Below, piece after piece: positions 12,813-63,544 of a stretch of DNA of 64,000 nucleotides. This stretch comes from an uncultured Candidatus Saccharibacteria bacterium. Its GTDB lineage: Bacteria; Patescibacteriota; Minisyncoccia; UBA6257; GWB1-50-10. The notes under the pieces were generated by a model. That model ran no database searches. It was given only the letters and a program-made list of their open reading frames with translations, and had not been told where the DNA came from. Each line of letters starts with the position of its first letter. Within the stretch, counting starts at the first letter, position 1. The stretch spans positions 5,287 through 69,286 of the forward strand of contig CAYHLH010000002.1 of assembly GCA_964357525.1 (NCBI GenBank), written 5' to 3'. Made by a program: the position numbers and the translations under genes.

Positions 12813-12897
12813 TTTCGCGACGTTTTATTCAGTATAGCATAAAAGATGCAAAAAACATGATTTCTCATACCCAAGGTCTTTTCTCCGCTTTTCTCCA

Positions 12898-12933
12898 CGC
12901 GGTCTGATTAATCAGACCGCGCCGTGGTATAAT
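12898..12933. promoter_or_regulatory. 24-bp perfect palindrome CGCGGTCTGATTAATCAGACCGCG followed by CCGTGGTATAAT (extended -10); operator-like site upstream of the frameshifted TrpR-like gene
   Basis: Perfect dyad centred on TTAA, the same centre as the E. coli trp operator CTAGTTAACTAG. Architecture identical to 1511-1546 but with a different half-site sequence. Confidence 0.5.
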
Positions 12934-13372: not shown

Positions 13373-13437
13373 ATTTTTCTCTCTAACTCCATCTTTCCCT
13401 CCGTCTTTTCTTTTTCTTCTATGTGTCCCCTCCACCA

Positions 13438-13461
13438 CGCGGTCTGATTAATCAGACCGCG
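13438..13461. promoter_or_regulatory. Second copy of the palindrome CGCGGTCTGATTAATCAGACCGCG
   Basis: Identical 24-bp dyad, 65 nt downstream of the pseudogene. Confidence 0.5.
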
Positions 13462-13630: not shown

Positions 13631-13660
13631 AGAGGTGGTCTGATTAATCAGACCACCTCT
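13631..13660. promoter_or_regulatory. 30-bp perfect palindrome AGAGGTGGTCTGATTAATCAGACCACCTCT (variant of the GGTCTGATTAATCAGACC dyad)
   Basis: Same core as at 12898 and 13438. Outer positions changed symmetrically (GCGG to GTGG on both arms). Confidence 0.5.
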
Positions 13661-15283: not shown

Positions 15284-15507
15284 TTCAAACTCCTTTCGAG
15301 TTCCAAGCTTTTCAGCTTATTAATTTATTTAATTACTAGGTTCATTATAGCACATTACTACAAAATTTTCAAGTTATTCTGTCAATCCCTCACATAACAA
15401 GTTATATAAGGGATAAAGATAAGGTTTTAAGCGGTTTTTGGGTAGTTTTAATAATCAAAGAAACTAGGTCTTCCGGACGAGGTCGGGTTTTCTTGTTTCT
15501 CGATTTA

Positions 15508-15577
15508 CCCGGTAGTAGAACCGCGACAGGTTCTCCACCTTTGGGTAGTCGCGGTACACTACCGGGTTTGCTACAAT
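15508..15577 (+). promoter_or_regulatory. Type-A hairpin (CCCGGTAGTAGAACCGCGACAG...TAGTCGCGGTACACTACCGGG) followed by extended -10 TTTGCTACAAT
   Basis: Long inverted repeat with termini CCCGGTAGTAG / CTACTACCGGG, then the TGnTACAAT box. Its predicted transcript starts at about the ATG of the type-B element at 15585. Confidence 0.55.
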
Positions 15578-15584
15578 GAAACAT

Positions 15585-15718
15585 ATGCCCAGTAATACAA
15601 CTTCAATTCGCTTTGCGAAAAAGTGATTGAAGCACAGTTGCTGGGGAAAGTCGCAGTACAAACAAAAAGTTAAAAACACCTTGTCGCGGTGTAACCAATT
15701 GAAGTTGATATACTGGGT
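15585..15718 (+). mobile_element. Type-B inverted-repeat element, ORF-less derivative (MITE-like) of the GIY-YIG element at 63224-63544; its 3' end abuts the ATG of the 15719 gene
   Basis: ATG-CCCAGTAATACAACTTCAATTCG...CCAATTGAAGTTGATATACTGGGT-ATG. First 7 codons MPSNTTS identical to the GIY-YIG gene start, then a stop after 13 codons. About 23 bp terminal stem with a 3-nt central mismatch. Confidence 0.6.
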
Positions 15719-17179
15719 ATGAAAAATAAAAGGGAAATTGTATTTATTTTAGTCGGCGTGGCGTTCCTACTCTTCGTCCTTGTTTCCATGGGGGTGTTCC
15801 GGAATCTCGGGCAGCAGGTGGCCCAGGAGTTCTATGTGAACGCGAAGGGAGAGAAGTGGACGCTTCCGGACGGGAAGTACGAGTTCACGGTGAGCGCGAG
15901 CGGCTATCCGCGATTCCTAGGTGGAGTGATAGACCCCGTGAAAGTAAAAGTGGGAGATACGCAGACGATGACGGTCCGCGTCGCGAGCCCGGTGCCGATA
16001 GAGAGCGTCGTCGCTGAAATTCAAACGGACACAAAGACGCAGGAAATCGCGCTCACACTCGTGGAGAACAAGGCACTTTCGGGAGAGTATTTTGAAAACC
16101 AACCATACCTCATTGACGACAGCGGGGAGCTCATCATCAACAGGGCGAACTCAAGCTATGCGGAGAAGGCGATAAAGCAATTGGTCGCGAGCGCGGAGGC
16201 ACAATCCCTCGTAGAATATGTCTTTGAGGGCGAGTGGGTGGTAAACGACACGCATACGAAGCTTTACCACACGAAGTTCACGGCGACGGATGAGGACGGC
16301 AATGCCGACGAGCTCATTCTCGCGTGGTCCGACCCTGTGTGCAATTTTCTTACTGATGTTGATGGCACCGGATTACTTCAAGGAGACTGTTCAGTAACCA
16401 ACGGAGTTGAGGGTTTTGACGGGGCAAATCTTAGTTTGAATGGACATCAGGTAACTCTTTCCGGTACTTCCTCTCTCATCTGGAACGGGGATGCCGAAGG
16501 CAATCGGTCGCTCATCATAGGAGGGGGAAGCATCAGTATCGGCAACGGCACGCAGGTGAAGGAAGCGCTTCTGTGGTACACCGACCTTGATGCGGATACC
16601 TTTACGGCGGATTTGGGAACAATACACTACGAAGATTGTTCTCTGCCGCCGTGCCCGCAGAGGGTGCGCGTTAAAGATTCTCCATCGCGACCGTGGTTCA
16701 CTCCCGCCTTGGCAAACGGTCTTGACTGTCTCGACGACCCGACTATCGGGGATTTCAAGGCGGTTGACGTTCATCCCCAGCTTCCCGGGGAGGAGAAGTA
16801 TTTCGAGGATTTCTACAACGCGGGAGTGACAAACCCACAGAGTTACGACTACGACTGTTCCGGCGCGGCGACCGGAGGATGGGGAAATAATGTTCCCACC
16901 GATATAACCTCAACAACCCTCGTCTACTTCGACATAATAAGCGGCGGTGACGACCAGGGCGGCGGCAAGCAGTTATGCAATACAGGAGCGACCATAGAGG
17001 ATTTCTCTTCGTACTGCGGTACTCTCTCTCCTTCCACTTTCATACGGTGCGATGTTGGGCTCATTACCGGCGGTGGCGTGGGGAGCCCGGAGATTTTTCC
17101 TCCAGACCTTGAAAACGGATGGATGTACGGCACGTGCACCGAATGCATCGGCGTCTCGGTCGCCGGATTCTGCCACTGA
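15719..17179 (+). CDS. Secreted/membrane-anchored hypothetical protein with Cys-rich C-terminal region
   Basis: N-terminal signal anchor. C-terminus has multiple CxxC-like cysteines (CDVGLITGGGVGSPEIFPPDLENGWMYGTCTECIGVSVAGFCH). Confidence 0.55.
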   Translation: MKNKREIVFILVGVAFLLFVLVSMGVFRNLGQQVAQEFYVNAKGEKWTLPDGKYEFTVSASGYPRFLGGVIDPVKVKVGDTQTMTVRVASPVPIESVVAEIQTDTKTQEIALTLVENKALSGEYFENQPYLIDDSGELIINRANSSYAEKAIKQLVASAEAQSLVEYVFEGEWVVNDTHTKLYHTKFTATDEDGNADELILAWSDPVCNFLTDVDGTGLLQGDCSVTNGVEGFDGANLSLNGHQVTLSGTSSLIWNGDAEGNRSLIIGGGSISIGNGTQVKEALLWYTDLDADTFTADLGTIHYEDCSLPPCPQRVRVKDSPSRPWFTPALANGLDCLDDPTIGDFKAVDVHPQLPGEEKYFEDFYNAGVTNPQSYDYDCSGAATGGWGNNVPTDITSTTLVYFDIISGGDDQGGGKQLCNTGATIEDFSSYCGTLSPSTFIRCDVGLITGGGVGSPEIFPPDLENGWMYGTCTECIGVSVAGFCH

Positions 17180-19403: not shown

Positions 19404-19471
19404 CCCAGTAGTAGAACCGCGACAGCCCTTGCCGGAAAATGGTCGCAGTTCACTACTGGGTTTGCTATACT
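19404..19471 (+). promoter_or_regulatory. Type-A hairpin (CCCAGTAGTAGAACCGCGACAG...TCGCAGTTCACTACTGGG) followed by extended -10 TTTGCTATACT; a second TTTGCTATAAT box at 19498-19508 lies 8 nt before the ATG
   Basis: Inverted repeat with termini CCCAGTAGT / ACTACTGGG, read directly. Promoter boxes TGCTATACT and TGCTATAAT. Confidence 0.55.
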
Positions 19472-22289: not shown

Positions 22290-22430
22290 CCCAGTAGTAG
22301 CACTGCGACACATTTTGCGCCTCCAGTGGATTTTTCAGAAAACATCGGAATGGCGTTATAAAATAATATATTCAACTGTATCAATGACATGTTAGAGGCA
22401 GTCGCAGTCCACTACTGGGTTTGCTATACT
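22290..22430 (+). promoter_or_regulatory. Type-A hairpin (CCCAGTAGTAGCACTGCGACA...CAGTCGCAGTCCACTACTGGG, loop of about 90 nt) followed by TTTGCTATACT; ATG of the downstream gene lies 7 nt after the -10 hexamer
   Basis: Inverted-repeat termini identical to the 19404 copy. A leaderless arrangement is predicted. Confidence 0.55.
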
Positions 22431-28439: not shown

Positions 28440-28574
28440 ATGCCCGGTAATACAACTTCGATGCGCTCCGTGAAAAATGAATCGAAGTGTAATGCCTTTG
28501 GAAATTAATGACACGAGTAAATATCAAAATTACATTAGTCGCGGTGATAACCAATCGAAGTTGATATACCGGGC
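28440..28574 (+). mobile_element. Type-B inverted-repeat element (ORF-less derivative of the GIY-YIG element), filling the whole intergenic space between the 28140 gene stop and the pilB ATG
   Basis: CATG-CCCGGTAATACAACTTCGATGCG...CGCGGTGATAACCAATCGAAGTTGATATACCGGGC-ATG. Keeps codons MPGNTTS then a stop after 23 codons. Arms carry compensatory changes relative to the 15585 copy (A/T to G/C at two stem positions). Confidence 0.6.
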
Positions 28575-57445: not shown

Positions 57446-57474
57446 GAAGCGGATACAATTTGTATTTCCCCGCT

Positions 57475-57688
57475 CGCTCGGAAATGTAGGTATAACCACC
57501 CCCATTTCCTCGCTCGCCAGGTTATGGCGGAATGAAATTCCTTGGTAACCTAGTTCGCTCGGAAATGTAGGTATAACCACCCCCATTTCCTCGCTCGCCA
57601 GGTTATGGCGGAATGAAATTCCTTGGTAACCTAGTTCGCTCGGAAATGTAGGTATAACCACCCCCATTTCCTCGCTCGCCAGGTTATA
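57475..57688. repeat. 81-bp tandem repeat, 2.6 copies, copies 1 and 2 identical
   Basis: Unit CGCTCGGAAATGTAGGTATAACCACCCCCATTTCCTCGCTCGCCAGGTTATGGCGGAATGAAATTCCTTGGTAACCTAGTT at 57475, 57556 and 57637 (partial). The partial third copy ends in AGGTTATAATG, creating a TATAAT box 9 nt before the GTG start of the 57697 gene. Confidence 0.85.
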
Positions 57689-57696
57689 ATGAGTTT

Positions 57697-58596
57697 GTGA
57701 AGGAAAAGAAAAGTTTCTTAATGCGGCTTGTTTCCGCGGTCATCATCGGACTCGTCGCCGTTCTCGGTTATTACGGGTATCAATACTATATTCTCTCAGA
57801 CGAACTCCTACGGACCCGAGACGAGTTCCGCAGAACGGTTTCCGATTTTGAGAATCGGGTTTCGGCGCTTCAGGCGGAGCTCGAGGCGGCGAAAAACGAG
57901 AACGCGGATCTTTCGGTGAAGCTCGCCGCCGAACAGGGGAAGAATGCCATGTTTGCGGAGCAGATTTCGGGCATTGCGGGCACAGTGGGCATTTTGGAAA
58001 AGCTTTCAAAGACCGACAAGGAGCTCCTGCAGAAATATTCCAAGATCTATTTTCTGAACGAGCACTACATACCCGAGGCGCTTGTCCAAATAGCAAAGAC
58101 ATATCTCTCGGGTGGGAACGACGAGGAGTGGATACACGCCCGCGCGTGGCCGCGCCTCCAGACGATGCTCGACGCCGCCTCGCGCGACGGCGTTACCCTC
58201 AAAGTCGTTTCCGGGTACCGCTCCTTCGACACGCAGGCGGATCTGAAATACGGATACCGCGTCTCCTACGGTTCCGGCGCGAACCAGTTCTCCGCGGACC
58301 AGGGATATTCCGAGCACCAGCTCGGCACCGCGGTGGACCTCACGACGCCCTCAATGGGAACGTCCCTCACGACGCAGTTCGAGAAGAAGCCGGAGTACGG
58401 CTGGCTTGTCGCGAACGCCTACCGATACGGGTTTACGCTCTCGTACCCCAAAGGGAACGCATACTACCAGTTCGAGCCGTGGCATTGGCGGTATGTCGGG
58501 GTCGCCTTAGCGACGAAGCTCAAGAACGACGGGAAATATTTCTACGACCTTGACCAGCGCGAGATCGATGCCTACCTCGTGAGCATCTTCGATTAG
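57697..58596 (+). CDS. D-alanyl-D-alanine carboxypeptidase, VanY/peptidase M15B family, membrane-anchored
   Basis: Zn-binding motifs SEHQLGTAVDL and EPWHWRYVG. N-terminal TM plus coiled-coil. GTG start. Confidence 0.75.
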   Translation: MKEKKSFLMRLVSAVIIGLVAVLGYYGYQYYILSDELLRTRDEFRRTVSDFENRVSALQAELEAAKNENADLSVKLAAEQGKNAMFAEQISGIAGTVGILEKLSKTDKELLQKYSKIYFLNEHYIPEALVQIAKTYLSGGNDEEWIHARAWPRLQTMLDAASRDGVTLKVVSGYRSFDTQADLKYGYRVSYGSGANQFSADQGYSEHQLGTAVDLTTPSMGTSLTTQFEKKPEYGWLVANAYRYGFTLSYPKGNAYYQFEPWHWRYVGVALATKLKNDGKYFYDLDQREIDAYLVSIFD

Positions 58597-62293: not shown

Positions 62294-63223
62294 TCAGTTA
62301 GCCGCGAGAAGCACGACGATGCCGGCAAGGAAGAGCGCGGATGCGGCAATTTTTTGGATGGCCGCAATTCCAGTGAACGATTCCTTGAGCACGGAGGGGA
62401 ACCTCGCGGAGAGCGCGAACGCGAAGAGTTGCACGAAGAGGAACTGCACCCCCTGCAGGGCGTTCACGACGGCGACCGCGCCCGCCGGCGCGAGGTACAC
62501 GGCCGCGTTCTGGAGCACTCCCGCCGTCGCGCCCGCGCCCTGGATGCCGAGGAAAGTCCCTGTGCCTCCGCGTTTCGTCTCAGCCGGCGCTTCCGGCACG
62601 CGCTCCTTTTTCCGGAAGAGCTCGCTCCGCACGGAAGGCGAGAATGCGAATATCGCGAGTGCGGCGAGTGCGCCGAAAAGCCTTGCCCACAAAAGCCCGT
62701 CCCAGAAAGGCCCGAGGGAATACACGTATTTCAATGACACGAAGTACATCGCGAAGAGCAGCGCGGGAAAGAACGCAGCGCCGAGGCTAAGGAGGATGCG
62801 TTTGCCGCGCTGTGCGGTCACGACGACGCTCGCCGCTACGAAGAGGATGAGCGAGAGCGCCTGAGCGGAACCGATGGGCTCCCGTGGGAATACCGCGTAC
62901 GCAAGGAGGAGTGTGAGAAGGGGAAGGAGCCCGCCGATGGCGGGGATTATGCGCGAGGATTCGTGGACATTCAGGTTCTTATAGAACACGCCGAGCGCAA
63001 TGATGAAGATTATGCCTGAAAAGGCCGAGGTGAAGAGGAATTGCGCGCCTGGGAGAGGGAATCCGAAAAATGGGGCGAGCAAGACCACGAGCCCGCCCAG
63101 CGCGCCGACGTAGAAGGTGAATTGGAGGGGGCTCGGGACGACCTTCGCGAGTAGATATTTGTCCCCGACGGCGTTCACCGCGAAGAGAAGGTAGGCGAAA
63201 AGCGCCGCCGCAAGCCAGAGCAT
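62294..63223 (-). CDS. EamA/DMT-superfamily-like polytopic membrane transporter
   Basis: 309 aa with about 10 TM helices in two repeated halves. Its ATG is directly abutted by the 3' inverted repeat of the GIY-YIG element. Confidence 0.55.
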   Translation of the reverse strand: MLWLAAALFAYLLFAVNAVGDKYLLAKVVPSPLQFTFYVGALGGLVVLLAPFFGFPLPGAQFLFTSAFSGIIFIIALGVFYKNLNVHESSRIIPAIGGLLPLLTLLLAYAVFPREPIGSAQALSLILFVAASVVVTAQRGKRILLSLGAAFFPALLFAMYFVSLKYVYSLGPFWDGLLWARLFGALAALAIFAFSPSVRSELFRKKERVPEAPAETKRGGTGTFLGIQGAGATAGVLQNAAVYLAPAGAVAVVNALQGVQFLFVQLFAFALSARFPSVLKESFTGIAAIQKIAASALFLAGIVVLLAAN

Positions 63224-63541
63224 CCCAGTATATCAACTTCCAGTGACGCCAGACGCCCCTTTGGAACGCTGGTATTCCTGAAGTCGCAATCCGAGGAACC
63301 TCCGACCCTGGGTTCCCTTGAGATAGTGTTCCCTGCGTCTGGCGTCTTTTAAGTTTGTGCACCCCTCAAAGTACACGAGCTTGAATGGTCTGCGGGGAGC
63401 AGTTGCAAGGCTTTTGCCTTTTTCGTGCGCTTCCAATCTCTGCCTGAGGTTGGGAGCATACCCGATGTATCGTTTGTTGTCCTTCATGCTCTCCAAGACG
63501 TAGACATAGTGGAAGTGCACTCTGGAAGTTGTATTACTGGG
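63224..63541 (-). mobile_element. Type-B inverted-repeat element, full-length copy carrying a GIY-YIG gene (candidate parent of the copies at 15585 and 28440)
   Basis: Minus-strand reading: ATG-CCCAGTAATACAACTTCCAG...CTGGAAGTTGATATACTGGG-ATG. The 5' arm is the first codons of the GIY-YIG ORF. The 3' arm contains its TGA stop and ends exactly at the ATG of the 62294 gene. Confidence 0.55.
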
Positions 63542-63544
63542 CAT
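63233..63544 (-). CDS. Small GIY-YIG nuclease superfamily protein (YhbQ/UPF0213-like), 103 aa
   Basis: YVYVLESMKDNKRYIGYAPNLRQRLEAHEKGK...RRPFKLVYFEGCTNLKDARRREHYLK matches the GIY-YIG motif series. ATG 1 nt after the TAG stop of the upstream glycosyltransferase gene. Only the C-terminal 103 aa of the 206-aa track ORF are real. Confidence 0.7.
   Translation of the reverse strand: MPSNTTSRVHFHYVYVLESMKDNKRYIGYAPNLRQRLEAHEKGKSLATAPRRPFKLVYFEGCTNLKDARRREHYLKGTQGRRFLGLRLQEYQRSKGASGVTGS

Follow-up and report, generated by a model that had tools for sequence, protein, structure and literature searches.

A composite structured leader in a Saccharibacteria genome, probably built by two small mobile-element insertions and linked to candidate GIY-YIG nuclease elements

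The leader of the gene at 15719 in the window, as we call the whole 64,000-nt stretch of uncultured Candidatus Saccharibacteria DNA that was analysed, raises the question of whether a host gene has here evolved an elaborate regulatory RNA or whether its structured 5' region has some other origin. A sequence-only reading had described a composite of a hairpin (type A), an extended -10 box and a second structured element (type B) carrying a 13-codon mini-ORF, and had proposed that type B sequesters the start codon of the gene as a riboregulator. All of the pieces lie where they were said to lie, from the hairpin ends CCCGGTAGTAGAACCGCGAC...GTCGCGGTACACTACCGGG (15508-15566), through the box and the gaaacat between it and the first ATG (15585), to the single T that separates the right end of type B from the host ATG; the sole misquote is that of the type A 3' end, given as CTACTACCGGG where the DNA has CACTACCGGG. 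It is the interpretation that we would change, since comparison of the sequences makes it highly probable that this leader consists of two small mobile-element insertions belonging to the families described below (Table 1). The protein of the host gene itself gave no match in a Pfam search.

Table 1. Positions of the leader components, of their relatives in the window and of the genes that they adjoin.
Feature	Position	Strand	Basis or remark
TTTA, left flank of type A	15504..15507	+	Degenerate copy of the 4-bp target duplication TTTG
Type A, 59-nt MITE-like hairpin, antisense to the gene	15508..15566	-	Arms match the P0276-type element (L169), reversed
TTTGCTACAAT, native extended -10 promoter-like box (predicted)	15567..15577	+	Motif recurrence; TTTG regenerated by the type A duplication
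TATG, left copy of the target duplication	15584..15587	+	ATG is the putative original start of the gene, now heading the mini-ORF
Mini-ORF MPSNTTSIRFAKK plus TGA	15585..15626	+	Codons 2-7 from the left terminal repeat
Type B, 130-nt non-autonomous copy	15588..15717	+	Left repeat 15588-15608, right repeat 15697-15717
ATTGAAG, 'proximal partner' of the sequence-only reading	15626..15632	+	Not conserved in the subfamily
TATG, right copy of the target duplication	15718..15721	+	ATG is the regenerated host start codon
Host gene, 486-aa secreted or membrane-anchored protein	15719..17179	+	ATG at 15719
Second type A copy	19404..19460	-	TTTG on both sides, then TTTGCTATACT
Third type A copy, 130 nt, with a longer interior	22290..22419	-	TTTG on both sides, then TTTGCTATACT, 7 nt, ATG
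Second short type B copy	28443..28573	+	CATG on both sides; at the pilB start codon (28575)
Gene of a 309-aa membrane protein, host of the full-length type B	62294-63223	-	
Full-length type B, 318 nt	63224..63541	-	ATG on both sides; at the start codon of the 309-aa membrane protein gene
GIY-YIG nuclease ORF, 103 aa	63233..63544	-	Pfam PF01541, E = 4.1e-15

The window itself holds the first evidence. Probes of 20 nt find three copies of each repeat type in its 64 kb as compared to none in 100 shuffles, so that the two element types together are present in six copies, and one of the type B copies is a full-length element with the layout ATG CCCAGTAATACAACTTC ... GAAGTTGATATACTGGG ATG, the interior of which is the ORF of a GIY-YIG nuclease. 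The ATG of this ORF (at 63544) is the flanking copy of the target and lies immediately beyond the left repeat, to which the first seven codons correspond; the stop TGA falls within the right repeat (GAAGT-TGA-TATACTGGG), with the ATG of the following gene 11 nt further on. Since the same ends enclose this ORF, the type B elements at 15588 and 28443 appear to be short, non-coding versions of the coding element. The mini-ORF of the focal leader had already been connected with the GIY-YIG gene, and rightly so, its first 20 nt being identical to the start of the nuclease ORF on the minus strand; its 'MPSNTTS' would be what in-frame reading of the left repeat yields, a leftover of the nuclease N-terminus. 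The length of the mini-ORF is not conserved across the focal-subfamily copies (13, 22, 16 and 41 codons), and outside the repeats the interior of this subfamily has no similarity to the nuclease ORF.

A scan of public genomes, one per species, for the repeat core, with left and right arms then paired, returned about 48 complete elements of the type B family from many lineages of the Patescibacteria (CPR), the host MAGs being labelled as Doudna-, Terry-, Azam-, Wolfe-, Kerfeld-, Veblen-, Magasanik- and Saccharibacteria and as other Patescibacteria. Other phyla gave single unpaired matches only, about as many as chance would produce with a 14-base pattern in 596 Gb, and a scan of viral contigs for the right arms of types A and B likewise gave only chance matches lacking a partner arm. 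The elements form a size series of 62, 129-158, 198-254 and 309-336 nt, their repeats of 17-21 nt comprising a 17-nt conserved core plus 3-4 covarying pairs, and no ORF other than the nuclease is enclosed in any of the approximately 48 pairs. In several mid-sized copies, parts of the nuclease ORF can still be recognised at both its 5' and its 3' side, and these copies would thus be internal-deletion derivatives. For the focal subfamily, a metagenome scan (AACCAANNGAAGTTGATATAC) yielded true copies in three of 21 hits, which sufficed to test the proximal helix considered below but are too few for statistics; one groundwater metagenome contig (L135) carries a copy identical to the type B at 28443.

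How these elements arrive is indicated by their flanks. Among the 46 elements with both flanks, 34 are bounded by perfect 4-bp direct repeats, TATG in 24 cases and otherwise CATG, TGTG, CACG, TAAA, TTGA, TATT, TATA or ATGA, identical on the two sides, and most of those without a perfect repeat share ATG or differ at one base. Flanks that vary in sequence and are nevertheless the same on both sides demonstrate a true target duplication as opposed to a fixed end sequence. In a logo of the 46 flanks the four duplicated bases alone carry information (T 35, A 39, T 40, G 38), which speaks against a composite of promoter plus ATG as the target, TATG alone being visible. A 62-nt copy nested in the nuclease ORF of another element provides a further instance: CAAG stands on both sides of it, and uninterrupted nuclease ORFs read ACTCAAGGTCG at the same position, a clean empty site for the insertion. 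This nested copy (L048, P0060) leaves the GIY-YIG ORF in frame, and a protein with a similar in-frame insert was also seen.

The preference for gene starts is marked, with about 40 of the 48 elements adjoining the start codon (ATG or GTG) of a sizeable ORF. With a single exception, these start-codon insertions are in the sense orientation, that is, with the nuclease-sense left end directly after the ATG. Start codons make up only about 22% of the non-genic TATG sites in the same loci (164 vs 575), so the bias toward start codons goes beyond a preference for TATG. The contexts that have been struck are both of the leaderless type (TAnAAT 5-9 nt upstream) and of the Shine-Dalgarno type. Such a bias may result from targeting or from the survival of tolerated insertions; the non-coding copies show it too.

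We turn to what was there before the insertions. The arrangement of TTTGCTACAAT, 7 nt and ATG (15567-15587) is shared by five further genes of the window, and the other TGnTAyAAT boxes in the window likewise stand 6-8 nt ahead of an ATG, in agreement with the leaderless-type promoter spacing that the sequence-only reading had recognised. TTGCTAYAMT occurs six times as compared to 0.13 expected, and a motif of this type is also found upstream of the focal-gene orthologs; the box is therefore best read, as a prediction, as the native extended -10 of a leaderless-type gene. All three type A copies are followed directly by CTAyAmT, the focal one lying between TTTA (left) and TTTG (right) and the other two having TTTG on both sides. 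Type A would have inserted at the TTTG of an extended -10, with the duplication restoring the TG of the box. One of its arms, CCCGGTAGTAGAAC..., corresponds to the right arm of a P0276-type element, and the other, its right arm taken as the reverse complement (CCCGGTAGTG...), to the left arm of that element. We infer that type A is a short copy of this second GIY-YIG subfamily, and the reversed match places it antisense to the gene downstream.

Homologues of the focal protein (54-47% identity) are found in a syntenic neighbourhood that includes a divergent Por_Secre_tail gene upstream, and the orthologs at L145-L147 read TTTGCTATAAT uninterrupted, with neither type A nor type B. For instance, L145 reads cttgaTTTGCTATAAT where the window has ctcgaTTTA followed by type A and then the box. 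Orthologs that keep an intact promoter while lacking both elements indicate that type A and type B are lineage-specific insertions, the 54%-identical orthologs being the nearest comparison, as an exact or same-species empty allele of the focal sites was not recovered. Relatives of pilB (82-88% identity) also lack type B, and as each of them has a different palindromic spacer of about 100 nt they do not offer a clean empty site.

The enzyme encoded by the full-length element has a weak T5orf172 match besides PF01541, and its 184 relatives at 60-72% identity are nearly all 101-103 aa long, beginning with MPSNTTS and ending in GS and the stop. The residues of the GIY-YIG motif are invariant, with the Y/Y/R/E positions as in UPF0213. 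A profile search of solved structures returned 1zg2 (BH0048; E = 1.1e-9), 1ywl (EF2693; E = 2e-5) and the SLX1 structure 7wme (E = 0.0085); the AlphaFold model is a single-domain fold with a pLDDT of 81, for which Foldseek places BH0048 (1zg2) and several Slx1 structures on top, with I-TevI and UvrC far below. TIGR01453 scores 17 against a cut-off of 56. By profile and predicted fold, then, the nuclease would belong to the standalone SLX1-like/UPF0213 branch, of which the eukaryotic SLX1-like members cut branched and stem-loop DNA (PMC1564403). Within a 50%-clustered library the MPSNTTS family amounts to one representative, and a further 569 small GIY-YIG proteins are found at E <= 1e-10. The protein is a single domain of 103 aa with no obvious DNA-binding or strand-transfer function, an observation that weighs against nuclease-driven mobility.

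Selection appears to act differently on the interior and on the ends of the element. Among the five full-length elements, conserved residues are encoded by many synonymous codons (four for V16, L17 and G85, five for R51), whereas codons 1-7, which the repeat encodes, and the final two codons show no synonymous variation; this contrast points to purifying selection on the protein and to a DNA-level constraint on the ends. Distant GIY-YIG relatives (L168, L169-171, L172) have the same layout of ATG, repeat, repeat and ATG with repeats of their own. Writing the element boundaries as slashes, the P0276 locus reads aATG/CCCGGTAGTGAAAATTCAAG ... CTTGAATTTCTACTACCGGG/tATG, the P0273 locus tATG/CCCCGTAAGGCAAATTTA ... 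TAAATTTGCTTTACGGGG/tATG, and the P0406 locus gATG/CCGAGTAGTGAATCTTCTGG ... CCAGAAGGAATACTACTCGG/tATGA, the stop in this last case overlapping the regenerated ATG of the next gene, which we take from its N-terminal sequence to encode alanyl-tRNA synthetase. A stop codon near or overlapping the restored host ATG thus recurs in all three of these elements. Our main argument for the nuclease as part of the element, and not as cargo, is that ORF and repeats change together.

The helices on which the regulatory interpretation was founded can be reconsidered on this basis. The predicted RNA fold of the focal type B has the distal helix closed and both AUGs paired (-45 kcal/mol, z = -5.1), and the suggestion that this helix sequesters the downstream start is borne out to that extent. 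The four focal-subfamily copies, two from the window and two from a groundwater metagenome (L129 and L139), all fold with the repeat stem closed and with both AUGs in it, at -35 to -47 kcal/mol and z from -3.0 to -5.5, and in each the duplicated (T)ATG is the exact point of closure. A host regulator with two alternative helices is nevertheless not supported: what forms the distal helix is the pair of terminal inverted repeats of a mobile element, and this element occurs at about 48 unrelated loci in many lineages. The substitutions quoted for the copy at 28440 are indeed present, but the three-way covariation seen in them rests on one change from A:T to G:C between two copies and is absent from L129 and L139. 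Moreover, the proximal partner ATyGAAG is missing in these same two of the four copies, which are unrelated at that point, a result that the sequence-only reading had itself named as fatal to its pair of alternative covarying helices.

Covariation is nonetheless real at the level of the family. Across 45 elements, 90.8% of stem cells are paired as compared to 83.6% in shuffles, double substitutions occur at nine pairs, and the repeats have a covariation score of 0.215 vs 0.077 (0/500 shuffles reach 0.215; slid controls <=0.055); the three pairs just inside the conserved core show three or four pair types each. The double substitutions and the covariation indicate that complementarity of the element ends is maintained, and this is equally expected from folding at the DNA level or from a mechanism in which one arm serves as the template for the other. 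On the sense strand, G.U and A.C mismatches in the stem are equally numerous (6 vs 6), with no signal of selection on RNA. Searches of Rfam, at gathering score over the whole window and at E <= 1 on 15400-15800, returned nothing relevant, with only tRNAs at gathering score and one spurious hairpin match. The repeats of type B carry a conserved ATA/ATA mismatch, which makes the arms unlike and in the right arm creates the TGA stop; that it might act as a guide by pairing with the target TAT was considered and set aside, as type A has no equivalent loop.

Since the predicted fold buries both AUGs, it probably affects expression of the host gene, but that the repeat stem materially controls host-gene translation we consider only a possibility, somewhat short of even. 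A transcript from the box would be predicted to begin close to the first ATG, in which case the element would make up the entire 5' leader of the 15719 gene. The frame of the first ATG stays open to <=25 nt from the host ATG in 10 of 30 short copies, as compared to 1.8 expected from interior shuffles, and likewise in the full-length elements, suggesting selection, in some subfamilies, for translation across the element and for its coupling to the host start. The proposed coupling to the mini-ORF thus gains some evidence for the family but fails for the focal copy, in which the frame stops 92 nt ahead of the host ATG (66 nt in the pilB copy). With a stop so early, simple termination and reinitiation does not explain expression of the 15719 gene, and both host genes would be translated in another way: ribosomes on the mini-ORF may open the stem, the stem may be processed, or the insert may be looped out. 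An outward promoter in the right repeat (TGATATACT), giving a leaderless host mRNA, is unlikely, as it lies only 3-4 nt from the ATG.

Taken as a history, the leader would begin as a native leaderless-type promoter and start (TTTGCTACAAT, 7 nt, ATG), into which, as sequence comparison indicates, two independent non-autonomous insertions were made. Type B would be a short derivative of an element of about 310-320 bp whose repeats enclose one gene, for a nuclease of 101-103 aa. Having no start codon of its own, this element would insert with a 4-bp duplication, preferring TATG, such that the nuclease ORF would start at the left copy of the host ATG and be driven by the promoter or ribosome-binding site of the host, and the right copy, just beyond the nuclease stop (11 nt upstream), would restore the start codon to the host. 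Type A would be an insertion of the same kind by the second GIY-YIG subfamily, antisense at the TTTG of the extended -10, with the box restored. The 'distal helix' would then be the pairing of two terminal repeats; in the mRNA this stem would bury both AUGs, and ribosomes from the first AUG might open it or reinitiate after the stop, or it might be processed. We would give even chances to the further proposal that the nuclease, acting on folded or cruciform repeats, mobilises coding and short copies alike. The broadest claim, of a new superfamily of autonomous Patescibacteria elements of about 0.3 kb that are mobilised by their nuclease, insert at start codons or TTTG and leave short copies that become host 5' leaders, is put forward tentatively, as rather less than an even prospect.

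One rival to this reading is the original one, a 5' UTR riboregulator evolved by the host, in which a proximal and a distal helix would switch translation of the 15719 gene, possibly via the mini-ORF. We now regard it as very improbable. It can call on the prediction of the distal helix as the minimum-energy fold, with both AUGs paired in it, on the matched substitution in all three segments by which the two window copies differ, and on the first-ATG frame that remains open to the host ATG in some short elements, but it has to contend with the loss of the proximal partner in L129 and L139, with orthologous loci that lack the element (the orthologs of the host gene have neither of the two), and with the same sequence standing, complete with target duplications, before unrelated genes in many lineages; nor is there an Rfam family match or an excess of G.U on the sense strand. 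The alternative that had been offered in its place, 'insertion debris', does not fit either, as type B would be an intact non-autonomous element.

It might be argued instead that these are true MITE-type transposons moved by an unlinked conventional transposase, the GIY-YIG gene being cargo, a nuclease of the selfish or addiction kind, or a homing-type enzyme that does no more than promote spread by break repair. Known bacterial insertion sequences all use DDE, DEDD, HUH, serine or tyrosine enzymes, we know of no GIY-YIG enzyme that serves as a bacterial transposase, the present nuclease has no DNA-binding domain, and a 4-bp duplication is typical of the staggered cuts of DDE-type enzymes. Yet in every full-length copy the ORF starts and stops within the repeats, three further GIY-YIG subfamilies have the same layout with repeats of their own that diverge together with the ORF, and no other ORF is ever enclosed; moreover, homing does not account for insertions at about 40 unrelated sites. 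In the partly annotated window, the surroundings of the six copies revealed no transposase, and the HTH-like genes that recur there, at 1545 and 12997, are by their sequence motifs presumably TrpR/YerC-like and not transposases. On balance, we judge an unlinked transposase unlikely. A different proposal concerns only what the stem does, namely that it renders the insertion harmless in RNA, either because the stem of about 24 bp is cut by an RNase III-type enzyme, which would remove the element from the 5' end and leave a near-leaderless host mRNA, or because the insert is looped out, which would bring the upstream ribosome-binding signal beside the second AUG. There are precedents for both: RNase III cuts the hairpins of Correia elements and excises intervening sequences of 23S rRNA, and in phage T4 gene 38 a hairpin bridges a split ribosome-binding site. 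The exact closure of the stem at the duplicated (T)ATG, the double substitutions that keep its complementarity and the intact state of the host genes, pilB among them, all agree with this proposal; the lack of a sense-strand G.U bias does not, and the complementarity could equally serve the DNA or be homogenised by the transposition mechanism. We consider it fairly unlikely.

If the nuclease does drive mobility, the elements would represent a new enzymatic class of bacterial transposon and, to our knowledge, the smallest autonomous one, and a role would be suggested for the widespread UPF0213/standalone Slx1-like proteins of about 100 aa. The logic of insertion is unusual as well, in that the start codon of the host is taken, its signals are used and the start codon is returned via the duplication, with the consequence that in very reduced genomes many genes come to have a strong hairpin between promoter and coding sequence. 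For annotation, this would explain the recurrent mini-genes labelled 'GIY-YIG nuclease family protein' and the odd structured leaders of CPR genomes. There is also a caution, in that the covariation of terminal repeats can pass for evidence of a riboswitch.

With respect to known classes, types A and B look like MITEs: they are short (59 and 130 nt), contain no functional ORF, have terminal inverted repeats and a 4-bp target duplication (34/46), belong to a dispersed multicopy family (the window plus about 48) that shares its ends with an autonomous-type partner, and differ in presence and absence from the orthologs at L145-L147, though no same-species empty allele was recovered. The full-length element is not a classical insertion sequence, its sole ORF being the GIY-YIG nuclease and not a DDE, DEDD, HUH, serine or tyrosine transposase. 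Nor do the leaders behave as a cis-regulatory RNA, given the lack of conservation in orthologs and of a curated family and the proximal helix missing in 2/4 copies. The nuclease has the catalytic domain of a GIY-YIG homing endonuclease, but as a single 103-aa domain, at about 40 unrelated sites and with repeats and duplications; its similarity in sequence and fold, together with its conserved catalytic motif, aligns it with UPF0213 and standalone SLX1-like proteins. A literature search, incomplete in its coverage, found no description of repeat-flanked GIY-YIG elements in bacteria.

Several known systems share some of these traits. The recognition of folded DNA and orientation-specific insertion by a short tetranucleotide recall IS200/IS605, REP/RAYT and integron attC sites, in which imperfections of the stem may mark strand or orientation, as the ATA/ATA mismatch perhaps does here; those systems differ in using HUH or tyrosine enzymes, in having no target duplication and in their subterminal hairpins. 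Rickettsia palindromic elements are similarly small, palindromic and found in frame within genes, as is the 62-nt copy, but have no known enzyme and no preference for start codons. Like intron-encoded and free-standing homing enzymes such as I-TevI and the Seg proteins of T4, the nuclease is encoded by what looks like a selfish GIY-YIG gene between or beside host genes; the homing enzymes, however, have a separate DNA-binding domain and one cognate site, spread by break repair and lack repeats and duplications. The best profile and fold matches are to UPF0213 proteins (BH0048 1zg2, EF2693 1ywl, E. coli YhbQ), which are likewise single domains of about 100 aa, but which are annotated as having no known function and for which neither repeats nor mobility have been reported; a survey of the superfamily from 2006 treated prokaryotic standalone Slx1-like proteins as vertically inherited (PMC1564403). 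Among non-coding elements, the comparison of interest is with the Correia elements, to which we come last.

Correia (CREE/NEMIS) elements of Neisseria are non-coding sequences of 100-160 bp with inverted repeats and a short duplication, many copies of which lie next to genes and are co-transcribed with them, and their hairpins can alter mRNA processing and expression. They duplicate TA, have no known autonomous partner and do not sit on start codons, whereas the elements described here have an autonomous-type GIY-YIG partner with identical ends and take (T)ATG at gene starts as their target.

The type B element, the mobile element that occupies the start codon of pilB in the window, is absent from the pilB orthologs of close relatives (L142, L143 and L144). 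Instead, in each of these loci the upstream pilus gene is separated from pilB by a different palindromic spacer of about 90-125 nt, and such differing palindromes in relatives that lack type B suggest that hairpin elements have a hot spot before pilB, or that a stem-loop is required there. At the ortholog of the focal gene (15719-17179, plus strand), in locus L145, another hairpin of about 60 nt is flanked on one side by TTTGCTATAAT and on the other by a second TATAAT box lying 8 nt upstream of the ATG; this is a different small palindromic element in the same kind of position.

The right terminal repeat of type B, TGATATACT, has the TGnTAnnnT form of the genome's own extended -10 boxes, but its distance to the regenerated ATG is just 3-4 nt. 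The close spacing of such boxes to ATG codons elsewhere in the window (Table) suggests that leaderless mRNAs would be widespread in the source organism.

Table. Coordinates of the repeats, boxes and GIY-YIG genes discussed
Feature	Location	Remark
Palindromic spacer before pilB	L142 2909-3000; L143 2875-3000; L144 238-349	
Hairpin, TAGTCGGCTGTCGGGAAAA...TTTTCCCTCGTTACCGACTA	L145 2290-2394	ortholog of focal gene
Right terminal repeat of type B	window 15701-15717, 28557-28573, 63224-63240	
Extended -10 boxes, TGnTAyAAT or TGCTATACT	window 4580, 5261, 12925, 19501, 22421	6-8 nt before ATG
Palindrome GCGGTCTGATTAATCAGACCGC	window 12895-12921, 13435-13461, 13631-13657	third copy a variant
Tandem 81-nt unit	window 57474-57716	two copies identical, third partial (70%)
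More distant small GIY-YIG genes	L168 306-620; L169 523-840; L172 275-593; L173 870-1160	
Nested-element loci	L060 276-348; L115 6515-6763; L105; L088; L090	249-254-nt copies (L115, L105, L088, L090)
62-nt type B copy in GIY-YIG ORF	L048 1404-1465	

Two further repeats were noted in the window, the tandem 81-nt unit and a perfect 22-nt palindrome. The palindromes adjoin a TGGTATAAT box and a frameshifted gene copy (intact paralog at 1545-1934) which, judged by its sequence motifs, we take to be TrpR/YerC-like, and the arrangement looks like that of an operator/repressor pair.

More distant small GIY-YIG genes carry terminal repeats of their own, arranged as in type B (ATG|repeat...repeat|ATG); L173 may be an exception, with a 15-nt inverted repeat upstream of the GIY-YIG ATG instead. 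In L168 the GIY-YIG stop overlaps the regenerated ATG of the next gene (ATGA), presumably alaS from its N-terminal sequence.

Type B copies can themselves house other elements, one resembling type A, the second small hairpin element (CCCGGTAGTAAC...CTACTACCGGG, CGAAG flanks), and another of a different kind (CCCAGTACTAGAG...CTCTTAGTATCTGGG, TTCG flanks); CCCRGTA...TACYGGG termini are common to all of these. Type B has also entered a GIY-YIG ORF, that of L048, where the 62-nt copy and a 4-bp duplication make an in-frame insertion of 66 nt, and at that position an independent GIY-YIG protein, P0060, has an insert of 24 aa. These in-frame palindromic insertions are reminiscent of the Rickettsia palindromic elements.
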